Shown: positions 22,980 to 40,624 of the stretch, in pieces
Layout of the letters: each line of letters opens with the position of its first letter
Numbering within the stretch: position 1 is the stretch's first letter
Assembly: GCA_002753495.1 (NCBI GenBank)
Contig: PEAJ01000003.1
Location: 1-40,624, forward strand
Origin: Magnetococcales bacterium HA3dbin3
GTDB taxonomy: Bacteria > Pseudomonadota > Magnetococcia > Magnetococcales > DC0425bin3
Direction: 5' to 3'
DNA: 40,624 nt
Notes under the pieces: generated by a model
Databases searched by the model: none
The model's input: the letters and a program-made list of their open reading frames with translations, nothing else
What the model was told of the DNA's origin: nothing
Translations under genes and position numbers: made by a program

Positions 22980-25028
22980 GTGGTGGCACGATACCTGTCG
23001 GCGATTCTCGTTCTTGGCACGTTGTTTGTCGGTGGCTGTCTGGTCAGTTGGAGAAAGTGGGCGGACATTACGGTTGACTATGGCCGCAGTCTGTACATTC
23101 CCTGGCGCATGAACGAAGGGGATGTGCTTTATCGCGATCTTGACGCCATCTTTGGTCCCCTTTCCCATGCTTTTCATACCTGGCTGTTTCGGGTTTTTGA
23201 AACCTCGTTCATGACCCTTGTCGTGACGAATTTGATAGGGATTATTCTCCTTGCCGCCTGTATTTTCCATTTTTTCCGACGCCATATACTACCCTTTTCC
23301 GATCATGCCACGGGATTGTTCGTGGGCACCCTGGTTGCCTCTGTATTTTTGGCGGTGTTTGCTTTTGGTCAATATATCTGGGCGGGTAACTACAACTACG
23401 TTGTGTCTTACAGCCCGGAGGCGGTCCACGGGACAATTCTGCTTGCTTTCATGGTTACCCTTGCTGCGTCGACGCTGGGGAACCCGGGGCGAATCCGGTT
23501 TCTGGTTTGGCTGATGGGGGTTGTGTGTGGTCTGATTTTCATGACCCGCGTGGATATGACTCTGGCGGCGTTGATGATTGTGGCGGTCTACATGCTGCTT
23601 GCCTGGCGTGCCCCGGCGCGCCGGGTACTTGGGCTTTCCGCGCGCGTTGCCCTGTTTGCGGGCGGCCTGGTCACGGCGATACTGGTTGTTCACGTGATGA
23701 TTGGCCAGTTTCCGTTGGCCTACATCTGGCGTGACATCAACGTGTTGTTCGTACAGGGTCGCATCGACAAAAATCCCTTCTATGCCATGGTGATGGGAAC
23801 CGACGATTGGCAAGGTAATCTTTGGATAATGACGAAAAACATGTTCGTCTACCTGGCCCTGATCGTTGGCACGGTCATGGTCCATCGCCCTCCGCTGGTA
23901 ACCATGGGCGCGGGTGGGAAATTGGCGTATGTAGCGGCGGGGCTCTTTCCTATGCTTATGGTGACGCTGTGGATCTGGGAGATGTTTCCCAGCCCCGGGC
24001 TCGCATTAATTTGCCTGTTGCCGATCGTTGGCCTGGTCTGGTCGACCTGTCGCCCTCCGCTTGCGCTGGGAAGGGTCGAGGGATGGCTGCGCAAGGCGGT
24101 GAGTCTGATTCCTATGTTCCTGGCGACACTGTGGATTATGCTGACTCCTCCCCTTCCTTTTCTGGGGCTGTTGCTGTTCTCCATTCCAATCTTGGTCCTG
24201 ATGATGGCTGGGGCATTTCTGGTTGTCCTCTATCGGCCATGGATGGAACGGGGGCTTGCTGGAGAAGATGTCGTGCCTTGGCTGCTCTGGGCAACCTTCT
24301 CTTTTGCCCTGTTGCTGAAGATGCCTTTTAATGCCCACATTCCCCATTATGGTTTCATCCATGTCATGCCTGCGACCCTCCTGTTGGTTGCATTCCTGAC
24401 TGGCCACCTGCCAGCGTGGCTACGGGCATTTGGATTGAACGATCGACATTTTCGTTTGGTCATGACCGTGCTGATCGTCTTGGCATCGGCGCGCCTTGTG
24501 AGTTTGGGTTACGGCCTTTATGCGAAAAAGGACTTTCCGGTTGGAGAGGGCAACGATCAGATGTTTGCCCTTTCGCCGGAGAGCGACGCGCATGGCGAGG
24601 TGATCGGCAACTTTCTTGTCTGGATGAAAGAACACGCAGCTCCGAACGCCACGTTTGTCGTGGTTCCCGAAGGGGTGATGTTGAATTACCTCGCCCGGCG
24701 TAAGACTGTAACCCCGTCCATGTCGTTCCTTCCCCTGGAGCTGCTGCGCATTCCTGAGGAACAGCAAATTGCCTATTTTGAGCAACGTCCGCCGGATTAT
24801 TTTGTCGTGATCAAGCGGACTTTCAAGGAGTACGGCCTGCCAGGTTTTGGTGAAAGCCCGGAATTTGGACAAAGGATGATGAGCTGGATTCACGGTCATT
24901 ACAGCCAGCTGGCGTTTCTGGAACCGAAAAATGAGGATCCTGGCAAGTTTTGGATCCGGATTCTTGGCAGAAAGGAATCCCCTTATAACACGAAGCAAGG
25001 TGAAACCGGCATTCGTGGAACACAGTGA
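22980..25028 (+). CDS. Probable GT-C membrane glycosyltransferase, copy 2
   Basis: Same length as copy 1 and colinear with it, with substitutions concentrated in the middle. Confidence 0.65.
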   Translation: MVARYLSAILVLGTLFVGGCLVSWRKWADITVDYGRSLYIPWRMNEGDVLYRDLDAIFGPLSHAFHTWLFRVFETSFMTLVVTNLIGIILLAACIFHFFRRHILPFSDHATGLFVGTLVASVFLAVFAFGQYIWAGNYNYVVSYSPEAVHGTILLAFMVTLAASTLGNPGRIRFLVWLMGVVCGLIFMTRVDMTLAALMIVAVYMLLAWRAPARRVLGLSARVALFAGGLVTAILVVHVMIGQFPLAYIWRDINVLFVQGRIDKNPFYAMVMGTDDWQGNLWIMTKNMFVYLALIVGTVMVHRPPLVTMGAGGKLAYVAAGLFPMLMVTLWIWEMFPSPGLALICLLPIVGLVWSTCRPPLALGRVEGWLRKAVSLIPMFLATLWIMLTPPLPFLGLLLFSIPILVLMMAGAFLVVLYRPWMERGLAGEDVVPWLLWATFSFALLLKMPFNAHIPHYGFIHVMPATLLLVAFLTGHLPAWLRAFGLNDRHFRLVMTVLIVLASARLVSLGYGLYAKKDFPVGEGNDQMFALSPESDAHGEVIGNFLVWMKEHAAPNATFVVVPEGVMLNYLARRKTVTPSMSFLPLELLRIPEEQQIAYFEQRPPDYFVVIKRTFKEYGLPGFGESPEFGQRMMSWIHGHYSQLAFLEPKNEDPGKFWIRILGRKESPYNTKQGETGIRGTQ

Positions 25029-27071: not shown

Positions 27072-27147
27072 GGGCCGTTAGCTCAGTCGGTAGAGCAACA
27101 GACTTTTAATCTGTGGGTCGTTGGTTCGATTCCAACACGGCTCACCA
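27072..27147 (+). tRNA. tRNA-Lys (anticodon UUU)
   Basis: 76 nt; D arm GCTCAGTCGGTAGAGC, anticodon stem ACAGA/TCTGT with loop CTTTTAA, GGTTCGATTCC in the T arm, encoded CCA. Confidence 0.98.
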
Positions 27148-29207: not shown

Positions 29208-29370
29208 TGTAGGGCGCCGTTTGATTTGGCACCGATCGTCGCTTAGGTTGGCACCGATTTAGGGTTGTAAAAAAGTCATCGGCACGCATCTTGCTTTTAC
29301 CAACCGGACACCTGCTGTACCGCGCCGCCTTCGTTGGCATAAATTTTTGCGCTCGTTGGCACTGATTTAG
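29208..29370. repeat. Two blocks of TGTA-N3 plus two tandem 22-bp repeats (putative transposase-binding end)
   Basis: Repeats at 29215-29236, 29237-29258, 29323-29344 and 29345-29366, all carrying TTGGCA and ending in AT. The two blocks are 108 bp apart and both end in TTAG. Confidence 0.8.
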
Positions 29371-29432
29371 AGCCTACCTTCCCCGCTCTCGCCACCTCCT
29401 CCTAAGAAAATGCATTGTTCTGTTTTTTTCTG

Positions 29433-29526
29433 TTGCATAGCCTACGCAGTATGCTATGATGGATTCATCGATCGGGGCAGACGGCCCCACCCGCTCCTCG
29501 GGGATATCAGGGGATGGAGATGGAAG
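29433..29526 (+). promoter_or_regulatory. Sigma70-type promoter plus structured leader, copy 1
   Basis: TTGCAT-16nt-TATGAT with extended -10 TG, upstream T tract, GGGGC-loop-GCCCC hairpin and GGAG RBS. Confidence 0.8.
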
Positions 29527-29919
29527 ATGCAAGAAAAAACACATCATTTCGTTCAGCTCGCCATTGATCGCGCAGCCCGCCTTTTAGAGGAAAGGCTTGT
29601 GCAGCTAAGGGCGGTTAAGGGCCCCGGCTGCCCCTTCCCCCAATTCGATCCACGCGTGGTTGAATGGCACCGGGAAATCAAAAAGAAGTGCTGTGCGGAG
29701 TCTGAGAGGCATGTACCTGCCATAACAGCAGCCGCTTTTGCCGCTGCCGGCGCTATGGCAGTGGCAGAAACTGATGCCGCAATAGTGACTGTGGCGGAAA
29801 AAGCCGCCCAGTCTGTTGTCCATAAGATATGCCCGTTCCCGACTGCGTTGGAGCTATCAGATGCATACGTAGGGCTCTCACCCCTCTATCCTCCCGAGGA
29901 AAACGACTGCGCAGGGTGA
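29527..29919 (+). CDS. Hypothetical protein (130 aa)
   Basis: ATG lies at the same position after the leader and RBS as in copy 2; no recognisable family. Confidence 0.7.
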   Translation: MQEKTHHFVQLAIDRAARLLEERLVQLRAVKGPGCPFPQFDPRVVEWHREIKKKCCAESERHVPAITAAAFAAAGAMAVAETDAAIVTVAEKAAQSVVHKICPFPTALELSDAYVGLSPLYPPEENDCAG

Positions 29920-29999
29920 CTAAGACGGCAAGCCGGTGGTGGGAGATAGCCCTCCCCCACCACCATCCTTCATATCCTCCAAAAAATGAGGTTGAGAAA

Positions 30000-30551
30000 A
30001 TGTTGAAATCTTTCGATAAATTTTCACAGGATTCCATTCTACTGGTCTCGGCGGAGGCTCGTGCCGTTCTCTCCGACGCGGCCCGGGAGGGACGGACGGC
30101 TGCGGTGATAGAGGATGTCCGTGATGCCTATGACATACTCCGTCCCCTCGCTGTTGTCTCCGCCGCACGCCTCCTGATCGGGGCGCGCGGGCGGATCGAC
30201 GAGGGGGAGCTCCGCCGACTCCTCGGCGCCCCCGGGACAGTCGTTGATCACCTATCCGTCGTAGAAATTTATGGGTCAACCCCTTATGATAATATTTTCT
30301 TATCTGACTTCTTCGACGCGACGACCCTCGATAACACCGTGAGACATGCCCTCACGGTGTCAATTTTTTGCGATCTCCGTGCGTGCCCTGTTTGCGTTGG
30401 GGGGGGCTGCCCCTCATGTGCGCAGATCGGGGACAGCATCGTCCAGGTGCGCCCTGGACGGCCATCGTGCTTTGGCAAGAGCCCCCAAGAGCGGTTTGAG
30501 GAGGAGATCAGGGAGTGGCTGTCCCTGCCTCCGTCAGAGACGAGGATCTGA
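30000..30551 (+). CDS. Hypothetical protein with a CxxCxGxG-CxxC zinc-finger-like motif (183 aa)
   Basis: GAGG upstream of ATG 30000; CPVCVGGGCPSC near the C-terminus. Confidence 0.7.
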   Translation: MLKSFDKFSQDSILLVSAEARAVLSDAAREGRTAAVIEDVRDAYDILRPLAVVSAARLLIGARGRIDEGELRRLLGAPGTVVDHLSVVEIYGSTPYDNIFLSDFFDATTLDNTVRHALTVSIFCDLRACPVCVGGGCPSCAQIGDSIVQVRPGRPSCFGKSPQERFEEEIREWLSLPPSETRI

Positions 30552-30563
30552 GAGATAAACACA

Positions 30564-30599
30564 CCCTGGCGGGCCATCCTCTGCCAGGGCATCTTTTTT
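30564..30599 (+). terminator. Terminator-like hairpin before the HTH gene
   Basis: Stem CCCTGGCGG / CTGCCAGGG followed by CATCTTTTTT; the U tract is offset from the stem by 4 nt. Confidence 0.5.
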
Positions 30600-30606
30600 G
30601 GAGTAT

Positions 30607-31098
30607 ATGCAAGGGCGTAACTATATGATAAAGCTGGTCTATCCCGACTCAGAGCACGCACTTAGGTTTGATCCCGTGCGGATCGCTGTCCGCTGGCCGC
30701 ACGGGAAAGTTATTGACGGGGAAGAGTTTTCGTCTATCGCCGCGGCTGGGGGCGTCATAAAGACCGACCAGAGAATCGGAGTTCTACGCGCGTTCCAGGT
30801 CGAGGACGGCAGCCTTTTGGCAGATTCCATTGTTTCTGTTGAGGATGTTCGTGGAAAGCGCTTGCGCGATCTGCTGTCGCTCATGTCTCTCACACGCGAC
30901 CAGGCGGCGGCGCTGGTGATGGTCTCGCCATCGACGCTGGATGCGTGGATCTCACAGACTGGGGGGGCGGCCAAAAGGTCTGCCCCCGCGTGGGCCCTGC
31001 TGCTCCTCTCTCTCCTCTACGAGGCACGCGCCGCCGGAGAGGTAGGAGAGGCGATCGAGCGTAGAGCGCGCGCACGGGTGGAGTCCAAAAAAATTTAG
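30607..31098 (+). CDS. Protein with C-terminal XRE-type HTH resembling anti-CRISPR-associated (Aca) repressors
   Basis: LRDLLSLMSLTRDQAAALVMVSPSTLDAWIS...RSAPAWALLLLSLL. The start is 30607 or 30625. Confidence 0.7.
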   Translation: MQGRNYMIKLVYPDSEHALRFDPVRIAVRWPHGKVIDGEEFSSIAAAGGVIKTDQRIGVLRAFQVEDGSLLADSIVSVEDVRGKRLRDLLSLMSLTRDQAAALVMVSPSTLDAWISQTGGAAKRSAPAWALLLLSLLYEARAAGEVGEAIERRARARVESKKI

Positions 31099-31130
31099 GA
31101 TGGATCGCTCCTTGCCGTGCCGTTTTTTCC

Positions 31131-31226
31131 TTGTATAGACCACCACGCGTGCTATAATGAAATCATCGATCGGGGCACATCGCCCCGCCCGCTCCTCGGG
31201 GGGAAATCAGGGGATGGAGATGAAAA
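31131..31226 (+). promoter_or_regulatory. Sigma70-type promoter plus structured leader, copy 2
   Basis: TTGTAT-16nt-TATAAT with extended -10 TG; leader nearly identical to copy 1. Confidence 0.85.
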
Positions 31227-31967
31227 ATGAATAAAACCAATTTTTTGGTCCCGCTGCCATCCCTCACAGGCCTTGAAGCGGCTGAGGCTGAGCCTGTCCG
31301 CGACCGTCAGCTTGGCATAGCCCGCAGGATCGGCGAGGCGTTCGCTTTATCCGAGGACGGCGCCAGCCGTGAGGAGATCAGCTCGGGACTAGAAGGCCAG
31401 GAGCCAGTTTTTTTCGGTCTCGTGCTCGGATACGCTTCCCTGTCAGAGTACGACAGGGTGGTAGCTCATCTCGCCGGCATCACGTCGGCGCGCTGGTGGG
31501 TGACGACGGGGGCGAAGATTTTTCCGGAGCTGATCTCCAGCGCTATCAGACACATCCGTCTCGGTGAGCTGCCGGAGCTGGAAGGGACTGAAAAGCAAGC
31601 GGTCTGGGCGGGGGAGATCCGCGCCCAGCATCTCGATCGCGCAGAGCGTATGCTGCGCATCGCGCGTATCGTACAAAGTGAGACGATCTTCCTCAGTATG
31701 TCCGAACAGGCACAGGCGGAGGCATATACTGAGATCAAAAAAATTGCGGCGGGGACTTCTCTCCTGGACCAGGGCGCCCATGGAGGGGATTTTGTCACCC
31801 TCATGCGTCTCGCGGGCGACTCTGGTCGCTACGAGGCGTTTTACACCTGGCTGCGCGGCCGGACTGCATCTGGATGGTGGCTGGAGCGCAAGGTGGCGGG
31901 AATGGATTTGATTATGAAAGATTTTTTACGGGTGAGTTCAGCTGCTCAGAGCAGCTTCCGCTCCTAG
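31227..31967 (+). CDS. Hypothetical protein with an internally duplicated domain (246 aa)
   Basis: LPSLTG...TSARWWV and LPELEGTEKQAVWAGEIR...TASGWWL; GGAG RBS. Confidence 0.8.
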   Translation: MNKTNFLVPLPSLTGLEAAEAEPVRDRQLGIARRIGEAFALSEDGASREEISSGLEGQEPVFFGLVLGYASLSEYDRVVAHLAGITSARWWVTTGAKIFPELISSAIRHIRLGELPELEGTEKQAVWAGEIRAQHLDRAERMLRIARIVQSETIFLSMSEQAQAEAYTEIKKIAAGTSLLDQGAHGGDFVTLMRLAGDSGRYEAFYTWLRGRTASGWWLERKVAGMDLIMKDFLRVSSAAQSSFRS

Positions 31968-31989: not shown

Positions 31990-32217
31990 TCACATATAAA
32001 ACACTGGCGTATCATCGCTTTCCGTCTGCGCCTTGACGACCCTCCCGTCGCGCACGGTGACACGATCTCCCGACACCGAGACCCCATCCCACGCCGCCTC
32101 GACCACCCCGCGCGGCGTGGCGACGCGGGCGGTGCTGCCGGAGACGGAGAGGATCCGGCCAGAAGACGACGCATCGCCGACTAAAAGGGAACGCAGCTCA
32201 AGTAGAGGATGGGGCAT
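31990..32217 (-). CDS. Small beta-rich phage protein, last gene of the tail operon
   Basis: 75 aa; overlaps the upstream gene; GGAGG RBS; alternating Val/Gly beta-strand pattern. Confidence 0.65.
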   Translation of the reverse strand: MPHPLLELRSLLVGDASSSGRILSVSGSTARVATPRGVVEAAWDGVSVSGDRVTVRDGRVVKAQTESDDTPVFYM

Positions 32218-33598
32218 AGCGGAGCACCTCCAATGAAGTCGTGATGCGCGGCAAGCGCGCCTCGTGCGTGACGCTCGTGACCTTGCCGCGCCAGGAATCG
32301 CCCATCAGGGCGTCGTGGACCTCGACCAGCTGGCCAGGCATGATGCCGGGGCGGTAGATACAGGTCAGTGAAATCTCTTGCAGATCCTCCCCGGCGTCGA
32401 TCTCGGAGCGGCCGCGCTCGATCTTTTCGGCGCTGTTGGCAAGAAGCGGTTCAGCGATGTCTTTGCCCGGGTAATCGCCAGCGCCGCGCTGACAGATGAT
32501 GTCGCTGTCCCCGTAGCCGGTGCCGTTTTTGGTCTGCCCGGAGATGCGCAGAGAGACCGGGTAGGCTTCGAGCCCGCCGGCTGTTTTGGGCGTGATCAAT
32601 CCCCAGGCCTGGGCAACGGATCGGTACTTCACCCGCGCGACGGCCGTGCCGGCGTACTCCGCGGTCAGGGTGCGGTTGTCGGATTCCAGATTCAGCTCAC
32701 CCAGGGTTACCCCGAGCCAGAGGACGCTGACGATGGCCACTGCTGGCTTACTGATGGCAGCCATGGAAGTCCCTGAGAATGTGACGATTTCTTCGTTCTC
32801 TACCAGGTGGTTTCCCTCAGGGAAGATAAGTCCGGCGGAGGCCTCCAAAGCCAGATTGGTCACATTGGCGTCGACGTAGGCGAGGGTGTGTACCGTGTCG
32901 CCGCCGTAAAACTCCGTGCGGCCGCGATTGAGACCGGCCGGCCTGGCGTCCGGCTCGATATTGATCGGGCTGCCTTGTGGCAGATAGCCACGCACGACGA
33001 TCCGATTGACGCGCAGTCGCGACCGGTGCGACTCGCGGCAGGAGAGATTGTCGGCGATGTCGGTCAAGACATGATCCGGCGTGGCCGTGCCCCAGTCCGG
33101 TGGCGAGACCGGAAAGCGCTTACGCGTATGCAGCCGACCGTCGGGCAGACTCTCGACCACCCCGCCCGCCGCCTCGGCGATGGTGCGGACTACCTCGATT
33201 GGAAACCCCTCATGAATCGCCAGCCGGACCCGCCCGGATATGAGCCAGTTAATCATGTCCCAAACGATGGTCTCGCCGATCGCTTCCTCGGCGGCGGTGT
33301 GCGCCATGATCGGGGCATCCCAGGTGCGCTCGATAGGCTTTGCGCGCGGGGTTGCATAGCGCGCGGCCGGGCTGATGACGGCAACGACCAGTCGCGGCCG
33401 ATGTACACCCTCGCGCGACAGCTCTTTGCGATCGACGATCACACCGTATGTTTCGCCCGCGGCGTCGGCGCCGCCCAGGCGGATGGTCAGCGCGTCGTCG
33501 ACCTGGATGCGCTGATAATCTGCCGGGTTTTCCAGCTCGACCTGGCCGGTCCAGAACAGGTCGCCCTCGGATACTGAAAGAGTGATGGAGATTGGCAT
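32198..33598 (-). CDS. Putative phage tail hub/baseplate-type protein
   Basis: IEVVRTIAEAAGGVVESLPDGRL and C-terminal PGIMPGQLVEVHD..WRGKVTSVTH, a pattern typical of hub proteins. The start is uncertain (33598 or 33658). Confidence 0.6.
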   Translation of the reverse strand: MPISITLSVSEGDLFWTGQVELENPADYQRIQVDDALTIRLGGADAAGETYGVIVDRKELSREGVHRPRLVVAVISPAARYATPRAKPIERTWDAPIMAHTAAEEAIGETIVWDMINWLISGRVRLAIHEGFPIEVVRTIAEAAGGVVESLPDGRLHTRKRFPVSPPDWGTATPDHVLTDIADNLSCRESHRSRLRVNRIVVRGYLPQGSPINIEPDARPAGLNRGRTEFYGGDTVHTLAYVDANVTNLALEASAGLIFPEGNHLVENEEIVTFSGTSMAAISKPAVAIVSVLWLGVTLGELNLESDNRTLTAEYAGTAVARVKYRSVAQAWGLITPKTAGGLEAYPVSLRISGQTKNGTGYGDSDIICQRGAGDYPGKDIAEPLLANSAEKIERGRSEIDAGEDLQEISLTCIYRPGIMPGQLVEVHDALMGDSWRGKVTSVTHEARLPRITTSLEVLRYAPSST

Positions 33599-33626
33599 CG
33601 GATTAAACCAAAACAAGCTGCAAAGA

Positions 33627-34499
33627 TCATGATTTGCGCCGAAACGACAGAAAGACATCGCAAACAGGAATGAGTGACGAAGATGATTGTGTCGGGAGTG
33701 ACCAGGTATCCCCAGACCTCAAAAGCACGACCGGTCCCCCGGTCACCACTGGGCCAAACCAGGCTGCCGTGAGTGATGAAGCGATTGACTGCATCGGCAT
33801 AGAGTTGTCATAAACAGGGATGTTTATCGTCGATACAGCTGACGAAACCGTAATATTCACCCCATTGACTATAAATTTTTTAATTAAAAAGGTACCTTGT
33901 AAACAATTATAGAAGAACCCATAAACAGGGGTAAGAACTTCGATAACACTAATTGGTTGAATTCCTTTGCTTACCCAGTTTTCAATAGAAATTTCATCCC
34001 AACTGGTAGAAATCCTGTAGTAGGTAAAACATCCGGAGCATGGGCCGGTTGGGAATTTACTATCGTATGAAATTTTCTCATATAGCGGAGAGCCAGGAGT
34101 CCGTAAAATCGCCGGGTAAGACGGGATCCCTCCATCTGTGACGAAGGAGGAAGTGTAGATGGACAGCGTAACATTTCCACCGTTAACATTATCTTGCCTA
34201 GAGGGTTCCCTATAGAAATTAACCACATAGGACTCAAGGTATCCATCACCTACAAACTTTATGTATATTACAGACGTGCCTGAGTCGAAAAACGCCCCAG
34301 TTCCATCATTAAAAAAATTGAGAAATCTCCACGGGAAAATATCTCTAAAATTAGCGTCTATCCTGATAAGGAACCTCCATGAAATACCGTCTTGACCAAG
34401 GAACCGGTAGAGTTTTCCGCTATATCTTTTTGGGCCAAGGCTCGCCCCCACCACCTCATCAAACGGTCCAAGATCAATGGCTTGCGTCTGCGTCGTCAT
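33627..34499 (-). CDS. AT-rich hypothetical phage protein (290 aa)
   Basis: ATGA coupling to the upstream gene; aromatic- and Ser-rich; visibly lower GC than its neighbours. Confidence 0.7.
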   Translation of the reverse strand: MTTQTQAIDLGPFDEVVGASLGPKRYSGKLYRFLGQDGISWRFLIRIDANFRDIFPWRFLNFFNDGTGAFFDSGTSVIYIKFVGDGYLESYVVNFYREPSRQDNVNGGNVTLSIYTSSFVTDGGIPSYPAILRTPGSPLYEKISYDSKFPTGPCSGCFTYYRISTSWDEISIENWVSKGIQPISVIEVLTPVYGFFYNCLQGTFLIKKFIVNGVNITVSSAVSTINIPVYDNSMPMQSIASSLTAAWFGPVVTGGPVVLLRSGDTWSLPTQSSSSLIPVCDVFLSFRRKS

Positions 34500-35053
34500 C
34501 GAATTGGTATCCCGAGGTGGATGATGCTCACCCCACCATCTGGCATGAGCGGTGGCGTGTCACCGAGGACGGCATAGCGGATGGTCATGCTTTTACGTAC
34601 CGGATTCAGCGCGAGGAGGGGGTAGGAGATGGTCGCGGACGCCCGTACCGGACTTGTGCAGGCCCACTCCGCCCGCATAGCCTGCGCTACCGAGGTCAGA
34701 GTGCCGTACTGGGCTGTTGCGGCTGCGGCCACCCCCAGGCCGTAGACGCCTCGCGCTGCGGCAGAGAGGTAGCTTGCCCCACAGATGCCGCGCGCCGCCG
34801 CCTCGACGCGCAGGCCGTAGCTCGCTCTGACAGCGGCCGAGACACCGAGAGACCATGCCCCACGCTCGGCAACCCGGGTGACGGTGATCCCCTCCGTGAG
34901 GACGGCGTTGCCGGTCTGGTCGAGGATCCTGCCGCCATCCTGCCCCAGGATCCGGCCCGGGTAGACGGACGGGAACTCGATTGCCAAGAGATTCCCGGCC
35001 TGGTCGAGGATCTTCCCCCCAGCCTGGTCGAGGAGATGTGAGACGGTCGTCAA
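34496..35053 (-). CDS. Hypothetical phage structural protein
   Basis: ATGA coupling on both sides; repeated (L/I)LDQxG motif at the N-terminus; Ala-rich short repeats. Confidence 0.65.
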   Translation of the reverse strand: MTTVSHLLDQAGGKILDQAGNLLAIEFPSVYPGRILGQDGGRILDQTGNAVLTEGITVTRVAERGAWSLGVSAAVRASYGLRVEAAARGICGASYLSAAARGVYGLGVAAAATAQYGTLTSVAQAMRAEWACTSPVRASATISYPLLALNPVRKSMTIRYAVLGDTPPLMPDGGVSIIHLGIPIR

Positions 35054-35502
35054 GGCGCGATCGCCCAGGGCGGATGCCCTTCATAAAGGTGCAACCCTGC
35101 CACCTGCGTCGGCCGGCTGGTGGCGATCACCGGCGGCGTTGGCGGGCTCGCCAGCGGGTCCGGCGGCGCAGTGACGGTGAGGGTATCCTCCAGGTAGTCG
35201 AGGATCGTCACCGGCACCGGCCGCAAGATTGCCAGGTGTCCAGAGGCGTCGATCCCTTGCATGGCGAGCACCTGCCAGTCGAGCTGGTGCGCGGTGATGG
35301 CGCTCTCGATCGTCGCCAGCGGGTCAGCAGTGTCGATGTCGATCAGCACGTGCGTCAGCCGCCGTCCGCTCACCACGCGCGTCCCCGGCATCATCCCCGC
35401 CGGCCACTCGCCGCGCATTTGCCGGATGGTCGCTTGCACAGCGGCGGGGAGTGCGCCGAAAGACGTATCGTCCGGCATGTTGAGGATGGCGTCGCAAATC
35501 AT
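35050..35502 (-). CDS. Hypothetical phage protein (150 aa)
   Basis: ATG at 35502 overlaps the upstream TGA; AGGAG RBS. Confidence 0.65.
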   Translation of the reverse strand: MICDAILNMPDDTSFGALPAAVQATIRQMRGEWPAGMMPGTRVVSGRRLTHVLIDIDTADPLATIESAITAHQLDWQVLAMQGIDASGHLAILRPVPVTILDYLEDTLTVTAPPDPLASPPTPPVIATSRPTQVAGLHLYEGHPPWAIAP

Positions 35503-36860
35503 GAAAAATCTCCTTGGATGGCGACGGTAGACTGAACGCTGCCGAGGATCATCGCATTGGCGATCAGAATTGATTCCGGGATTCCCACCCCAAGGGTGAT
35601 GTAGCCATCGGAGCCTGCAAAGGAGCCGGCAAAGCTCGTGACCGTTCCCCAACTCCAAGCTCCAGGATCGGTGATGTTTTTACAGCCGATTTGCAGCTGA
35701 TTGGTCGCCACATCCCAGCGCACGGCGACACGGAAGCGTTTGCCGCGTGCCGGCACCGCTGCGATGCTTGCGCTGTTGCTACCATCGGTGGCCTTAAAAG
35801 CCTGCGCGGCAAAGTCGTAGTAGCAGAGTGACGCAGCGGACCCGGTGAGACTGACCAGCCCCATCGCGCCGGACGACAACAGAGAAGTGTCCTTCAAAAA
35901 CGGAAGCTCCAGCTCAACGATAAGCACGCCAGAGGCTCCATTGACGTTACCGGTGGCTGGCCACCGTAGAGCCTCGGATGCGCGGGTGACGGCGCTTATG
36001 CCTGTCACGATCGGGGTGCTGACCCCGTGCCCCGCTTCAACTTGTACATGCGCAGAGTCAATTGTTGTGGCGCCTGTCCCGCCGCTGTTGAAGGTCCAGT
36101 GCGTCGCCCCTCCGTCGATCAGGTGCTCGAGGTAGGCGTAGTCTTCTCCGCTTGGTATGTGACATTCGGTCGCGCGGATGAACCCTGTCGTCCCCAGCTC
36201 CGTGACATCTGCATCGATAGATGCGTCTCCTGTCACATGACATGTCTTGCTGTAAGGGTCGTGATAAAACTGGGAAGATGAGGCGCCGCCAAGAACTTGC
36301 ATGTAGCTGAAATGGGGGTTATCCCCGGCAATTATTTTATAGATTGCCTGTGCGGCGGCAGGAGTACCTGCCGGGAAAACGCCGTTGACCCCGCTCCAGC
36401 GGGCAGAATACCATCCCCACCCCTGCGGTTTGCCTAGACGTAGGCAAGCGCCGCCATCAATACCAGTACCGATATTTGCAAAAGTTTCGAGGTTGACGTT
36501 TTGAGGATTATTTCCCCCTTGATCTTGCGTCGACGCGTAGATGTAGTTTGTGCGCGTTGGCTCCAGGAGCAAGCCGAAGCCGTTTTGATCGAACCAGGTC
36601 ACGCCGAGCTTGCTGGTGCTCGTCACCCCCGGCGCTGACCACGCCGACCCCGACCAGATGCCGCCTTGAAGACGATGAACGTTGGTGCTCATTGACTTTA
36701 GCGCCCAGTTCGCATCGAAGACAGTACCCGTGCTTGCGCGGGTGAAGGTGGCCGCCCCCTGGCCCGCACGCAACGAAAGGTCAACGAAGTTCGGGCAAAA
36801 CAGCGGCGTTGCCTTGCCGCCGCCGGAGGCGAGCACCCCGATGCACGCTGGCGACATCAT
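35499..36860 (-). CDS. Phage fibre/spike protein with LamG/concanavalin-like domain
   Basis: TFTRAST, GLLLEPTRTN and QVEAG..STPI.T...VTRA motifs typical of virion fibre proteins; ATGA overlap at 36857-36860. Confidence 0.7.
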   Translation of the reverse strand: MMSPACIGVLASGGGKATPLFCPNFVDLSLRAGQGAATFTRASTGTVFDANWALKSMSTNVHRLQGGIWSGSAWSAPGVTSTSKLGVTWFDQNGFGLLLEPTRTNYIYASTQDQGGNNPQNVNLETFANIGTGIDGGACLRLGKPQGWGWYSARWSGVNGVFPAGTPAAAQAIYKIIAGDNPHFSYMQVLGGASSSQFYHDPYSKTCHVTGDASIDADVTELGTTGFIRATECHIPSGEDYAYLEHLIDGGATHWTFNSGGTGATTIDSAHVQVEAGHGVSTPIVTGISAVTRASEALRWPATGNVNGASGVLIVELELPFLKDTSLLSSGAMGLVSLTGSAASLCYYDFAAQAFKATDGSNSASIAAVPARGKRFRVAVRWDVATNQLQIGCKNITDPGAWSWGTVTSFAGSFAGSDGYITLGVGIPESILIANAMILGSVQSTVAIQGDFS

Positions 36861-37423
36861 GCCAGGTCTCCGTACGCGCCCCAGGTGTTGGGGGTCCCAG
36901 CGACCAGCTTGATGATGGTGACCGGGGAGTGCTGGCCGGCCAAGGATGTTCTTCCCTGCTTGCTTTCGATTACGTCCGCCCCTTGAGCGACCATCGTCAC
37001 CGTGCCGACGCCTCGCTGGATCACGGCACACTGCCACCCGGCCGGGATGGCCTCGGTGGAGGTCTGCGGCAGCGTCAGGGTGATGGGGCTCGCGTTGCTC
37101 AGAGTGATGATCTTCCCGCGATCCGCCCCGGTGGCTGTGTAGCTGGTACCGGTCTGCGCGCTGATCTGCGCACCGTGGCCAGACATGCTGTTGTTGGCAT
37201 CGACGGCGATGCCGGAGGCGTGCGCCGCGCCGTTGCCGTCGGTGACCGGGAGATACCCAGCACTTCCGGACGGGCCCATCGCCTGTCGCAGGTTTGCTCC
37301 GGTGATTTTCCGCGTGCTCCCGGCGGAAGAGTCGGTCGTGTCGGACACATCGACTGTCACGAAGTAGTCGCTTGGGTCTGGGGTCGTCAGAGCCGGCAGG
37401 TCGGTGATTTTACGGTCGGCCAT
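36857..37423 (-). CDS. Phage fibre/decoration protein
   Basis: MADRKITDLPALT N-terminus and a QTGTSYT..AD.GKII.LSNASPITLTLP domain. Confidence 0.7.
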   Translation of the reverse strand: MADRKITDLPALTTPDPSDYFVTVDVSDTTDSSAGSTRKITGANLRQAMGPSGSAGYLPVTDGNGAAHASGIAVDANNSMSGHGAQISAQTGTSYTATGADRGKIITLSNASPITLTLPQTSTEAIPAGWQCAVIQRGVGTVTMVAQGADVIESKQGRTSLAGQHSPVTIIKLVAGTPNTWGAYGDLA

Positions 37424-37433
37424 ATCATTCCCT

Positions 37434-38399
37434 TTAGCTATTGCTGCTTTCGTCGTCTGGGAGGAACCTCATCTTGATTACCCTGCCCGTATCTTGGTCC
37501 TTCATCCAGACCTCTGTGGTTCTTTTTACATCGACCTTCTGAGAAGTGTCGTCCGGATTTGTTACTGGTTTGGTGTCGGTTTTTTTCTTGCCGGGCATCT
37601 GGATTAGTAGATCTTCATCCTTGACATCATCGCCGTTATTGTCCGCACCGTCCCTCGGCTTCCGGATGCGTATCTCGGGACGGCCACGCGGCCAGAAAAG
37701 GCGCGGAAAAGAGAGAGACCCGGCGTGATATTTCGACTTCCCAAAGACGCGGACTGGCGGGACTTCGGCGAGCGTGACATCGCCTTTCTCCCAGGCGCGT
37801 TGCATCGCCTTGAAAACGTCTGCCGACGCAACCTTTTTTCCGTTGTCATAGGGGATACTGTAGAGCGAAAAAGGCACTGTGTAGGACACAAACATCGCCC
37901 CCGTGCAGGCGACGGGCGAATAAAATTCTCCGCGGTCTCTGTCAAATACAGGCGTCGGCACCATGTTGTCGCGATCGTCCCAGAAATCAGTACGCTGGTC
38001 GATCGAGACGCTTGTCACATTGTATGGGTATCGCAGCGTCTTGCGCACCTCGCGGCGCCAGGTGATGTCCTCCTTGATGACATCCTGACGCCGGCCAAGA
38101 TAGTCATACCCCCAGCCGAAAGAGTTGCCATCGACCGAGAGCCTGACGGTGTTGGCAACCTCGTCCGAACAGAAAAGCTTGATGCGTTTGATGCCTGGCC
38201 GCTCTACACGCAGAGAGTCCTCAGACGTTGCCGGGGGAGGCTTCCCATCCTCCCAGACAGCTATCGTGCCAGCCTCGACGGTAAAGGCGACAATGCACGG
38301 GAAGGCCCCCCCTTGATCGTCATCGACGACCAGCTCAAACGGCTCACTCGCCGCACGCGAGGCGATGGAGAGCGGCAGGACGGCAGAGACGACGGCCAT
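37434..38399 (-). CDS. Hypothetical phage tail-region protein (321 aa)
   Basis: TAATG coupling at 38397-38401; long ORF within the operon. Confidence 0.7.
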   Translation of the reverse strand: MAVVSAVLPLSIASRAASEPFELVVDDDQGGAFPCIVAFTVEAGTIAVWEDGKPPPATSEDSLRVERPGIKRIKLFCSDEVANTVRLSVDGNSFGWGYDYLGRRQDVIKEDITWRREVRKTLRYPYNVTSVSIDQRTDFWDDRDNMVPTPVFDRDRGEFYSPVACTGAMFVSYTVPFSLYSIPYDNGKKVASADVFKAMQRAWEKGDVTLAEVPPVRVFGKSKYHAGSLSFPRLFWPRGRPEIRIRKPRDGADNNGDDVKDEDLLIQMPGKKKTDTKPVTNPDDTSQKVDVKRTTEVWMKDQDTGRVIKMRFLPDDESSNS

Positions 38400-39424
38400 T
38401 ACGCGCTCTCGCCGGAGATCATGAGGTCGAAGTAGTTGTTCGAGAGGCTGTTGGCCCCGGCTGGTACGATGCGCTTGGTCCAGACCGGCACGGATGATGG
38501 ATGCGTGCGGAAGGTCAGGACATCGCCCGTTGCCCACGTACCGCCCCAGCCGGCAGACGGCAAACTGAAATAGGGCCTGGAGAAGATGGCGTTGGCGGGC
38601 GAGAAATCGTTGCCGGTCGATCCACTACCGACCGCCCCGAGGGTGTCGCCGGTACAAGCAAAGGTCGTGGGACTGGTAAAAACCAACGTCCACACCTGCT
38701 CAACACCGCCAATCGAGTCCACCGTCGGCACCACGGATGTCGGCGGTGTTGCCGGCGCGTTACCGGCGTAGGTCCCTGCAACCGTCGACCCGCCCCAGTT
38801 GTCCCACGACCCAATGACATATCCCACCTCGATCACCGACGAAACCCGGGCCGTGCCCCCGGCATAGCCATACGCCGTGCTGACGCCGGCAGAGAGCGTG
38901 AGCGTGGCCTTGCTGCCGTTCCAGCTGACACCGGAGGTCGATGCCACGCGCAAAAACTCCTCGTGCCCGTTGGCATCACTGATGCTGGTCTGGTCGCAGA
39001 TGCGGATTAGGTCGCCGTTACGGAATATTTGGTCTGCCGCCTCGCAGTTGACTGCGAGTGTGGTAGCCCCGGCGCTGATTGTGACATCGAGCGTGCCGGC
39101 GCCGTAGAGTCGCTCGGCTCCGGTCAAGGCATTCTGGGTGTCGGTCTGTACCCCTGGAAAGATCAAAACCCGGTCATCGCCCGGTGTCGGCGCGTTGAGA
39201 AAGACCTTGGCGTTGACCATTCGCTGGTTGCTCGCCGGGGCGACTTTGGCGAACAGTTTTCGATACTTCGTTGACCCCGCCAGCCGCTCAGCCTGCGGGA
39301 CGTAAGGAAAAAGGTTGCCCATGCCAGCCGGAAGGGCGTTTGCGGACATCCGGCCGCCGTTGCTGGAGGCGTCGCTGACGGTCGCGGGGAGATAGAACTG
39401 GATGTCAGTTGCTTGGATGGCCAT
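38399..39424 (-). CDS. Phage tail-associated protein
   Basis: MAIQATDIQF..SD..SNGGRM..NLFP.V...ERLAG..YRK N-terminus, recalled from tail-tip genes of temperate phages; not searched. Confidence 0.65.
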   Translation of the reverse strand: MAIQATDIQFYLPATVSDASSNGGRMSANALPAGMGNLFPYVPQAERLAGSTKYRKLFAKVAPASNQRMVNAKVFLNAPTPGDDRVLIFPGVQTDTQNALTGAERLYGAGTLDVTISAGATTLAVNCEAADQIFRNGDLIRICDQTSISDANGHEEFLRVASTSGVSWNGSKATLTLSAGVSTAYGYAGGTARVSSVIEVGYVIGSWDNWGGSTVAGTYAGNAPATPPTSVVPTVDSIGGVEQVWTLVFTSPTTFACTGDTLGAVGSGSTGNDFSPANAIFSRPYFSLPSAGWGGTWATGDVLTFRTHPSSVPVWTKRIVPAGANSLSNNYFDLMISGESA

Positions 39425-39431
39425 GATATTT

Positions 39432-39824
39432 CTAGACCTCGATCAACTTTACAGTGCCACTGTAACGGTCGTTCCAGGTCGGCACCGGCGTGCGGTCATT
39501 GTGCGGAACGCACGGACGTAGATCGATTGCCGGCGGCTCTTGATGGCGAAACCGCACCTGGAATGATTTATCCCACCAAATCAACATAAAAACAGCGTCG
39601 GGTAGGGCGGCGATGGCTTGCAGGGCATCCACCATTGCCCGCGTCAGCCATACCACCTCCCGGTGGGCCTCAAGGGTGATCGGGCGCCCGCCGGTGAGCG
39701 GAGTTGACCAATAAGCCACCGACCCGCCCAGCGTGCGTACGCCCTCTTGGGTGACCGGCGCCCAGGCGTGCTCATCGCTCCACTGGATGGCGTCAGGCAA
39801 AATCAGATCTCCGAGCCTTTTCAT
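39432..39824 (-). CDS. Phage distal tail-type protein
   Basis: LPD..QWSDE.AW.PV.Q...RTLGG...GRPITL motif; lies directly after the putative tape-measure gene. Confidence 0.7.
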   Translation of the reverse strand: MKRLGDLILPDAIQWSDEHAWAPVTQEGVRTLGGSVAYWSTPLTGGRPITLEAHREVVWLTRAMVDALQAIAALPDAVFMLIWWDKSFQVRFRHQEPPAIDLRPCVPHNDRTPVPTWNDRYSGTVKLIEV

Positions 39825-40624
39825 GGCAGCCCCCGCAGTGTCTCTTTGATGGAGTCGACCATGCCCTTGATCTGCTCGCGCGGCGCAAGCACCGATCCGA
39901 CACCTTTACCATTGATCACAATCTCATGCCGTACGACGTTTGCCTCTAATGCGCTTGGCGTGCCGCCCGATCCGCCGGCAGCGAAGGCCGGAGCAGGGAT
40001 GGCGGGGATGGTCAGGCGTGGGATTTCCGCCGTGAAATCATGGCCGGCATTCAGCCACGCCTGCATCCGGTCGGGCGGTGGCGGTGTAAACCCGGGCGGC
40101 CACGCGCCTTGCGCGTGGCTAGATTGAGATTGCCATGAGCTTAGGCGGTTAACAGCGGAGCCTCTCCAGAAATCATCGAAACCGCCCATCTGTTCGATAT
40201 ATGCTTCGGGACTTGATGGAACTTCGAGCTTTTCACCCTGCTTAGCTAACGAAAGAAGCCACTTTTCTCGCCATCCAGTCGTATGGCCAGGATGATGTTT
40301 TGCCGTGTTTTCCTCGTCTACAAGAGTCCCTAGATGCCGATTTTCTGGTTGCTCGGGCGCAGAGCCAAGATACTGCTTTTCCAGCACCCTGCCCTCCTTG
40401 TCCATAAGGGCTATCCAGGATCGCTCTTTTGGCTGTCCGGGCGCAGAGCCAAGATACTGCTTTTCCAGCATCCTGCCATTTTTATCCACAGATGCTATCC
40501 AGGATCGCTCTTTTGGCTGTCCGGGCGCAGAGCCAAGATACTGCTTTTCCAGCATCCTGCCCTCCTTGTCCATAAGGGCTATCCAGGATCGCTCTTTTGC
40601 TCCCCCGTCGCCAGCGCGAGGCTT
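39821..40624 (-). CDS. C-terminal part of a probable tape-measure protein (5' end outside the window)
   Basis: Frame stays open to the window edge; position upstream of the distal tail genes; ATGA overlap with the next gene. Confidence 0.5.
   Translation of the reverse strand, partial: KPRAGDGGAKERSWIALMDKEGRMLEKQYLGSAPGQPKERSWIASVDKNGRMLEKQYLGSAPGQPKERSWIALMDKEGRVLEKQYLGSAPEQPENRHLGTLVDEENTAKHHPGHTTGWREKWLLSLAKQGEKLEVPSSPEAYIEQMGGFDDFWRGSAVNRLSSWQSQSSHAQGAWPPGFTPPPPDRMQAWLNAGHDFTAEIPRLTIPAIPAPAFAAGGSGGTPSALEANVVRHEIVINGKGVGSVLAPREQIKGMVDSIKETLRGLP
40310..40599 (-). repeat. 84-bp (28-aa) coding tandem repeat, 3 copies plus a degenerate partial
   Basis: GCCAAGATACTGCTTTTCCAGCA at 40364, 40448 and 40532; peptide unit DKEGRMLEKQYLGSAPGQPKERSWIAxx. 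Confidence 0.95.

Follow-up and report, generated by a model that had tools for sequence, protein, structure and literature searches.

A candidate Aca-controlled anti-defence locus at the end of a Magnetococcales prophage

We analyzed a 40,624-nt contig of Magnetococcales bacterium HA3dbin3 (PEAJ01000003.1; hereafter the window, which is the entire contig C206), focusing on a small module at the end of a prophage. In order from the phage end, the module comprises a promoter (P1), orfA, orfB, a helix-turn-helix (HTH) gene, a second promoter (P2) and orfD, all on the + strand and antisense to the tail genes (Table 1). It is built like an acr-aca locus, in which anti-CRISPR (Acr) genes accompany the gene of an anti-CRISPR-associated (Aca) regulator, and we regard it as a candidate Aca-controlled anti-defence locus. 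The anatomy of the module, the duplication of its control region, the homology of its HTH protein to Aca proteins and the recurrence of the same gene order with variable cargo in related phages are directly observed. Whether these features amount to an Aca-type, autoregulated pair of accessory operons with probable counter-defence cargo we judge to be about evenly balanced. A first-pass annotation, made from sequence alone, had described orphan open reading frames (ORFans) of 130 and 183 aa, an HTH gene and a 246-aa ORFan here, and all four are present.

The HTH protein and its relatives

Searched alone, the window's HTH protein gave sub-threshold HTH matches only (HTH_28, 0.027; Xre-like-HTH, 0.037; a repressor PHROG, 0.0039), and a k-mer-seeded homologue search returned nothing. 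An exhaustive phmmer search of 1.84 billion representatives retrieved a 78-aa homologue (P0004, E = 2.6e-4), along with a public 78-aa gene call (30862–31098, TTG start) that is identical to the C-terminal half of the HTH open reading frame (ORF). P0003, a PPR-repeat protein from exhaustive HMMER searching, was set aside as spurious, low-complexity noise. A profile search added two relatives of 77–79 aa, and scanning 56 genomes of the host's order gave matches in four, host included. The family consists of rare proteins of ∼78 aa; no relative was seen in the viral contigs or genome contigs searched, and tblastn of the window's HTH protein and of P0005 found no match among 50,697 phage records.

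To relate this family to characterized regulators, we aligned eight members, leaving out the window's protein, which hhalign then matched to the alignment with a probability of 96.1% (E = 3e-9). When the family profile was compared with 177,635 distinct PDB sequences, nine matches were obtained at E ≤ 0.01. Aca10 was the best (7XI5, 4.9e-13), followed by Aca3 (7e-10), three Aca1 entries (about 2e-6) and three AcrIF24 entries, the latter matched via their C-terminal HTH (4e-6 to 7e-6). Smaller profiles gave the same ranking. Structural comparison pointed to the same proteins. With an AF2 model of the HTH domain (pLDDT 70–89), the top three Foldseek hits were Aca1 chains at a probability of 0.99–1.00, though with E values of 0.4–0.8, and VIA-align gave Z scores of 9.9 for SO3848, 9.6 for Aca10 (root-mean-square deviation 1.2, 57 residues), 9.3 for both Aca2 and Aca1, and 8.6 for NE0471. 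The first-pass annotation had noticed a resemblance to Aca1 and had named profile and Foldseek comparisons with Aca proteins as the check. The family-profile and structure matches confirm that resemblance as homology, with Aca10, Aca3 and Aca1 ahead of the antitoxin HigA-2 and with Aca1 at the top in Foldseek. At the level of sequence and modelled fold, the window's HTH protein is thus confirmed as a divergent homologue of the Aca10/Aca3/Aca1 class.

Antitoxins occupy the same fold neighbourhood. This brings in a toxin–antitoxin (TA) or abortive-infection module as an alternative, in which the protein would be an HigA2/MqsA-type antitoxin whose extension neutralises a toxin encoded by orfB or orfA, the complex autoregulating P1. 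HigA-2 is a significant match of the family profile (4.5e-4, and 5.4e-5 with one smaller profile), HigA2 and MqsA reach Z scores of 7.7 and 7.6 in VIA-align, and both combine an N-terminal extra part with a C-terminal HTH. A toxin-first gene order is typical of higBA and mqsRA, and in a sibling prophage (C238, see below) the ORF before the HTH gene overlaps its start by ATGA. Yet Aca10, Aca3, Aca1 and AcrIF24 all outscore HigA-2 by 2 to 9 orders of magnitude, and the antitoxin HTHs appear to be somewhat more distant members of the neighbourhood. Moreover, orfA and orfB lack toxin-family matches in Pfam, NCBIfam and PADLOC, a gap of 46–73 nt with a terminator-like hairpin lies between orfB and the HTH gene, and a second operon under the same control region (P2–orfD) is atypical of TA loci. 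We consider a TA module quite unlikely.

The HTH protein appears to be longer than its public gene call. For ∼80 residues upstream of the HTH domain, the frame is open and codon-biased, so the 78-aa call is probably truncated. Candidate starts are ATG 30607, ATG 30625, TTG 30817 and TTG 30862. Codon statistics derived from 1,242 long ORFs of this genome favour the 157–163-aa form that begins at either ATG: the segment 30607–30816 scored +0.064 in frame versus –0.47 and –0.46 in the other frames, and the C-terminal part scored 0.114 versus –0.48 and –0.37. By these measures the N-terminal extension looks coding, in keeping with the extra N-terminal domain proposed in the first-pass annotation. 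Extended HTH relatives also occur in two other Mu-like prophages, C238 (179–195 aa) and G013 (183 aa), and an alignment of 132 residues that takes in the N-terminal part shows the C238 and G013 proteins to be 35% identical (E = 1e-16). The window's extension is unrelated to theirs, which has no PDB sequence match; the N-terminal 85 residues here likewise have none below E 0.9. In the AF2 model of the full-length protein, residues 1–79 have pLDDT <50, so a fold search of this domain is not meaningful. By analogy with a known fusion (see below), the extension may have an effector role and could possibly be a counter-defence protein itself.

Control regions and recurring cassettes

A promoter-plus-leader segment of ∼115 nt is duplicated before orfA (29425–29536) and orfD (31123–31236). 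Identity is 77% between 29425–29503 and 31123–31201 and 84% between 29500–29536 and 31200–31236, and the start codons of orfA and orfD align within the duplicated leader. BLAST found these two copies only in the whole 2.9-Mb assembly, bearing out the second promoter copy noted earlier. Both leaders open with the inverted repeat GGGGC-N5-GCCCC, ∼8–22 nt past the predicted transcript start, which for P1 lies near 29467. A second stem in the P1 leader pairs CCGCUCCUC with GGGGAUGG, beside a GGAG ribosome-binding site. P1 also contains an imperfect 23-bp palindrome (29436–29458) that runs from the –35 to the –10 element with 9/11 pairs; this palindrome and the leader inverted repeat are candidate operators. 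The first-pass annotation had called P1 a strong promoter. Given the extended –10 sequence this is a plausible reading; a consensus promoter scan called neither P1 nor P2, because only 3/6 bases match in the –35 hexamer.

This arrangement agrees with one published for acr-aca operons, which supports the acr-locus architecture put forward in the first-pass annotation. In that account (PMC13551039), a DNA motif overlaps the promoter, the transcript starts ∼10–15 nt downstream, and an inverted repeat of ∼20 nt immediately past the start folds into an RNA hairpin. It reports the layout for aca1, aca2, aca10 and aca12 operons and describes adjacent aca-less operons bearing the same motif pairs (PMC13551039). 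All of these elements occur here, with a start site that is predicted and a P2 palindrome that is weak. The spacing of the genes also fits. AcaFinder looks for genes on one strand with gaps <250 bp (PMC9765179); here the gaps are 80 nt (orfA–orfB), 46–73 nt (orfB–HTH) and 128 nt (HTH–orfD), all on the + strand, and the P1 unit alone (130, 183 and 157–163 aa) falls within its limit of <200 aa for every protein.

From these features we infer how the module might work. Two sigma-70-type units, P1–orfA–orfB–(hairpin)–HTH and P2–orfD, would stand under one shared control region. On phage entry both promoters would fire and the cargo proteins would be made; as HTH dimer accumulated, it would shut both units down. 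It could bind the –35/–10 palindrome, the inverted repeat past the transcript start, or both, recognising DNA and perhaps also an RNA hairpin. Such repression would also prevent P2 transcription from colliding head-on with the tail operon. The host's type III CRISPR-Cas system would be one plausible target of the cargo. In this scheme, repression by the HTH protein, the identity of the operators and any anti-defence activity are all conjectural.

Cassettes of this design were also found elsewhere. Reading inward from the phage end, the sibling C238 has P1, a 128-aa ORF, a 94-aa ORF whose stop overlaps the HTH start, the extended HTH gene, P2 and a further ORF. In tblastn, C238 gave no match to any of the four proteins of the window's module, and BLASTP detected no significant similarity between the HTH proteins of the two prophages; the tail protein p486, in contrast, does match there (27% identity, tblastn). 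Between themselves, the two C238 cassettes show 90% identity. P2 of C238 has, between –35 and –10, a perfect 13+5+13 palindrome whose score no shuffle reached (0/2000), and the other cassette has a 9/11-pair version (157/2000 shuffles). Both C238 leaders have a GC hairpin at the same place. In G013, a third Mu-like prophage with MuA- and MuB-type genes, a TTGATA element and a perfect 9+5+9 palindrome precede a 111-aa ORF and the extended HTH gene. In G046, a GTCCCC-ATC-GGGGAC palindrome lies on the –35, followed by a 21-codon ORF, a terminator-like hairpin and a 72-aa HTH gene, which is antisense among lambda-like tail genes; its hairpin with T-run, read by eye, resembles the one before the window's HTH gene.

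A further genome of the same order, G016, carries two cassettes whose leaders match that of the window at 83% identity in their 3′ half (E about 1e-7). Two perfect GTGACATGTCAC palindromes lie around the –35 of either cassette, and the ORFans they drive differ. They lie at L120 6480–8250 (G016:C320), after tail-fibre genes. The duplication extends into the coding region, since the two cargo ORFs have their first 12 residues in common. Between the cassettes is a 241-aa ORF with a ribbon-helix-helix-strand-like stretch (by eye; no Pfam match), which is not similar to the window's HTH protein.

The HTH homologue of G046 matched five phage records, and in the two whose surroundings were inspected, phages Sirocco and Hyacinthe, the neighbours are unannotated small ORFs only. 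In Pseudomonas phage Sirocco (OR683410.1, 11888–12464; L018 2317–2893), a hypothetical gene (62 aa) precedes a 114-aa HTH gene whose product is 43% identical to the G046 family member (E = 1e-3). Sirocco is P2-like, and the pair, in antisense orientation, is flanked by tail-completion and baseplate genes; it forms an acr-aca-like cassette not recognised in the annotation. The conserved frame with exchangeable cargo that the window and C238 share is as expected of an accessory or counter-defence hot spot.

Cargo, host CRISPR and the anti-defence reading

Codon statistics favoured coding for orfB (0.006 in frame versus –0.36 and –0.35) and for orfD (0.125 versus –0.40 and –0.27). For orfA the score was ambiguous (–0.138 in frame versus –0.132 in another frame), and extensions upstream of orfA and of orfB (29829–29999) look non-coding. 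Neither orfA nor orfB has a match in Pfam, PHROGs, NCBIfam, PADLOC or PDB sequences. For orfD, Pfam, NCBIfam, PADLOC and PDB sequences gave no match, and PHROGs gave one, to PHROG 16123 (unknown function, 5.3e-6). Among 5.8 billion clustered proteins, orfD found only itself, and it had no relative in the viral contigs searched. In the ESM Atlas, orfB had no usable match and orfD nothing above chance level. Acrs are typically extreme ORFans, and the extreme ORFan status and small size of these proteins fit Acr-like cargo. By analogy with acr-aca loci, the cargo ORFans are most likely counter-defence proteins.

The same observations allow another reading, in which the cassettes are generic ‘morons’: the ORFans would act on host physiology or in superinfection exclusion rather than on defence systems, and the HTH protein would be their local repressor, with the regulatory scheme otherwise unchanged. 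In favour of it, the module has promoters of its own and occupies a variable region at the phage end, its cargo differs between related phages, and no cargo ORF here bears an anti-defence signature. Varied genes also follow relatives of the window's tail protein p486 in IMG/VR contigs, with SOS-peptidase-like and UmuD-like ORFs, recognised by eye, at the same position in two of them (L016 and L017). In a third (L015 9034–9897; IMGVR_UViG_3300039449_000030), a distant p486 relative and the last tail genes are followed by a D12-class Dam methyltransferase (Pfam, 6.1e-29), which fits a counter-restriction or accessory hot spot. Against the moron reading, the nearest characterized relatives of the regulator are all anti-CRISPR-associated, the cargo has the small size and ORFan character noted above, and the combination of promoter palindrome, leader hairpin and multiple operons is the one published for anti-defence operons (PMC13551039). 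We view generic morons as unlikely, though less so than the other rival readings.

The host itself has a CRISPR locus. Contig C17 (13207–13931; L003) contains a type III-style array of 10 repeats of 37 nt, which adjoins genes for Csx1 CARF-HEPN (PADLOC, 5.8e-140) and Cas6 (3.6e-97). We compared its nine spacers, ungapped, with both prophages, taking the remaining 2.8 Mb of the genome as background. Spacers 8 and 9 matched the C238 prophage at 30/39 and 29/39 nt (24562–24600 and 36996–37034), compared with a background best of 24–27, and the 12 amino acids encoded by spacer 9 are identical to those in the first gene of the cassette at that prophage's right end. CRISPR pressure on this phage lineage is therefore real.

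Several points weigh against the anti-defence reading. The window's HTH protein alone finds no Aca in PDB, the link running via the profile, and the HigA-2 and MqsA antitoxins lie in the same neighbourhood, as described above. AcaFinder's authors stress that HTH proteins are not all Acas, and they take candidates of <150 aa, a usual limit exceeded by the HTH ORF as read from its ATG starts (157–163 aa) but not by the 78-aa public call; orfD (246 aa) likewise exceeds the 200-aa limit set for all proteins (PMC9765179). The terminator-like hairpin that the first-pass annotation had raised as a caveat is present and separates orfB from the HTH gene; it has 10 pairs (7 GC) and a loop of 6 at 30564–30589, followed by a T-run, and three terminator-like sites were found across the region versus 3.1 expected from shuffles. 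The P1 palindrome is modestly unusual, its score being reached by 139/2000 shuffles, and the P2 counterpart is weaker (7/11, hand count) and not among the best. The window's leader RNAs fold no more stably than shuffles (z = –0.6 and –0.9). Across the four leaders folded from the window and C238, z ranged from –0.6 to –2.5, so stability alone gives no statistical support for a structured RNA. No cargo ORF matches a known Acr, anti-defence family or solved structure in the general libraries and PDB, which contains the solved Acrs (no dedicated Acr or anti-defence database was searched, which makes this negative a weak one), just as the first-pass annotation had said; AcaFinder asks for one or more Acr homologues per operon (PMC9765179). 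Two other checks it had named also came out negative: at six loci (L011–L014 and phages Sirocco and Hyacinthe), no recognised acr or anti-defence gene lay beside the HTH homologues, and 0/9 host spacers matched the window's prophage above background (best 21–24), giving no self-targeting signal.

The anti-defence interpretation offered in the first-pass annotation thus stands in part. Aca homology, the layout and the N-terminal extension speak for it; the missing Acr match, acr neighbours and spacer do not. Because the ORFans match no known Acr, family or structure and no spacer targets the prophage, we can only infer an anti-defence role for them.

Aca-type regulators are a productive handle for new anti-CRISPR and anti-defence proteins. 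Here, a regulator related to Aca10, Aca3 and Aca1 marks three proteins without detectable relatives, in phages of a poorly sampled, apparently uncultured lineage; for the MoaA encoded in the window, the closest named matches come from Magnetococcales MAGs (57% and 53% identity). To our knowledge, few inhibitors of type III CRISPR-Cas are known. The occurrence of the same promoter–leader cassette with different cargo in related phages offers a simple rule for harvesting candidates, and the extended HTH proteins may enlarge the small set of known regulator–inhibitor fusions. If the cargo were unrelated to defence, the control architecture would prove not to be specific to anti-CRISPR genes. A bolder version would make the extended Aca-like proteins (157–163 aa in the window, 179 aa in C238 and 183 aa in G013) a new class of AcrIF24-like bifunctional regulator–inhibitors, with swappable ORFans that include first-of-kind inhibitors of type III CRISPR-Cas signalling and with the leader as a portable RNA/DNA control element that lets one regulator serve any cargo; this we regard as a long shot. 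The locus is a well-marked candidate list rather than a new principle, and its most original aspects are the extended HTH proteins and the portable promoter–leader cassette.

Prophage setting and known systems

The module lies at the end of what is best read, from its sequence, as a Mu-like transposable phage. As the first-pass annotation had proposed, it is antisense to the tail operon and beside a phage terminus: over 53 nt, window 29315–29367 shares 92% identity with one end of the C238 prophage (C238 37496–37444). At the end opposite to its module, C238 encodes an S24/HTH repressor (domain scan), a 723-aa transposase (HTH_Tnp_Mu_1, 4.4e-16; Mu-transpos_C, 9.6e-15) and an AAA_22 ATPase of MuB type. 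Given the shared end and these genes, both prophages are best read as Mu-like. The corresponding MuA/MuB-type genes of the window's prophage are not in the window because the contig ends inside the prophage, and a search for its other end with a 24-nt end motif (≤6 mismatches) recovered only the two known ends. The assembly is fragmented (316 contigs, 2.9 Mb, 77% complete). The tail assignment rests on p486, which matches PHROG tail families (phrog_24698, 2.7e-29; phrog_6079 ‘tail protein’, 9.8e-14).

Table 1. Coordinates of the module and its surroundings in the window
Feature	Coordinates	Strand	Description
Window	1–40624		Entire contig C206, 40,624 bp
Host genes	1–28900		ABC transporters, Sel1-repeat protein, tRNA-Lys (27072–27147), moaC, moaA
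Prophage	∼29316 to contig end		
Terminal sequence	29316–29368	+	Mu-like prophage right end; begins TGTACCGCGCC; two GTTGGCA-type sites 22 bp apart
Promoter P1	29433–29460	+	–35 TTGCAT (29433–29438), 16-nt spacer, TGc + TATGAT extended –10 (29452–29460)
P1 5′ leader	29461–29526	+	Hairpin GGGGC-N5-GCCCC (29474–29488); ATG at 29527
orfA	29527–29919	+	130 aa; candidate cargo gene
orfB	30000–30551	+	183 aa; Cys-rich stretch CPVCVGGGCPSC; candidate cargo gene
Terminator-like hairpin and T-run	30564–30599	+	Between orfB and HTH gene; possible attenuator
HTH gene	30607–31098	+	Reading frame open 30598–31098; 157–163 aa from ATG starts
HTH gene, N-terminal extension	∼30607–30843		
HTH gene, C-terminal HTH domain	∼30844–31041		
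Promoter P2 and leader	31131–31226	+	TTGTAT (31131–31136), TGc + TATAAT (31150–31158), hairpin (31171–31187)
orfD	31227–31967	+	246 aa; cargo of second transcription unit, convergent with tail operon
Tail genes	31990–40624	–	
290-aa ORF among tail genes	33627–34499	–	

This setting bears on a further alternative, a role for the HTH protein in the phage life cycle as a Cro/Ner-like or late-gene regulator, with neighbours that serve ordinary phage functions. The weak match to a PHROG ‘transcriptional repressor’ (0.0039) and a match to the P22 C2 repressor with a smaller family profile (E = 0.0085) would suit such a role. The lysogeny and transposition genes of the sibling (S24/HTH repressor, MuA, MuB), however, lie at the opposite end, whereas the module is found past the tail genes, lacks sequence conservation between the sibling prophages and gave no Mor/C-type family match in the Pfam scan. 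A life-cycle regulator seems to us very unlikely.

Two other interpretations of the terminus were rejected. The GTTGGCA sites spaced by 22 bp might have been integrase arm sites, but the sibling has MuA and MuB and the shared end starts with TG. Nor can the module be placed outside the prophage, as its start is 117 nt within the terminal sequence shared with C238.

Window 29208–29296, immediately outward of the intact end at 29316, holds a partial second copy of a Mu-like phage end; it reads TGTAGGGCGCC... and includes two GGCACCGAT sites spaced by 22 bp. Its inner part is closer to the C238 prophage end than to the window's own, and it may be a solo end that a related element left behind earlier, or else further transposase-binding sites on the outer side. 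On the host's CRISPR contig, C17 10255–10420 carries three CTCGTTGGCA-type sites that resemble phage ends, ∼3 kb upstream of the array; the intervening DNA has five ORFs without family match and no transposase gene, and the sites may be another phage-end remnant. Within the tail region, the 290-aa ORF has a flat GC content of 0.43–0.45 at each codon position, in a prophage of roughly 56–64% GC. It has no family matches and could be a host-recognition gene of recent acquisition. An 84-bp tandem repeat (40354–40599, 2.9 copies, 89% matches) within the final – strand ORF probably explains why the assembly breaks at the contig end.

Among known systems, phage Mu itself has accessory genes with counter-defence function at its right end, the com/mom DNA-modification genes beyond the tail genes. 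The DNA-modification enzyme Mom is transcribed in the late direction under C/Com control, whereas the ORFans here are antisense to the tail operon and are associated with sigma-70-type promoters and an Aca-like HTH protein. The antitoxins HigA2 and MqsA share with the window's protein its fold neighbourhood and its arrangement of an extra N-terminal segment and a C-terminal HTH. They differ in scoring lower than the Aca proteins; moreover, no toxin homologue lies upstream here and the control region is duplicated on a second operon.

The Aca1 locus (acrIF1-aca1 of the Mu-like Pseudomonas phage JBD30; 7C0G, 7VJM, 7VJN and 7FA3) offers a homologous HTH protein, and both loci belong to Mu-like phages. 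JBD30-type phages carry their acr locus among the structural genes, whereas the module described here is at the extreme right end, antisense to tail genes, with unrelated cargo. The two loci are alike in having a promoter DNA motif, a transcript start ∼10 nt downstream and a hairpin right after the start, as given for Aca1 in PMC13551039. AcrIF24 (7DTR, 7XI1 and 7ELM) is a dual Acr-Aca protein in which an inhibitor is fused to an Aca-type HTH (PMC9638941). Its C-terminal HTH (residues 156–224 of 228) matches the family profile, and the window, C238 and G013 proteins resemble it in carrying an extra N-terminal part on the HTH chain; these N-terminal parts have no detectable similarity, and no homology to an AcrIF24-like N-terminal effector was found.

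Aca10, from the acrIC7-acrIC6-aca10 operon of Pseudomonas citronellolis (7XI5), ranks first by sequence among the matches of the HTH family and is one of the top matches by structure. The window's protein is a divergent family member and has a ∼80-residue N-terminal extension, and the genes upstream are not homologues of acrIC6 or acrIC7. Aca10 is a small dimeric HTH protein whose binding site is a 21-bp palindrome within the promoter of the operon that encodes it (PMC9410881). The palindrome of 23 bp that spans P1 would be the corresponding feature here, as a candidate operator.

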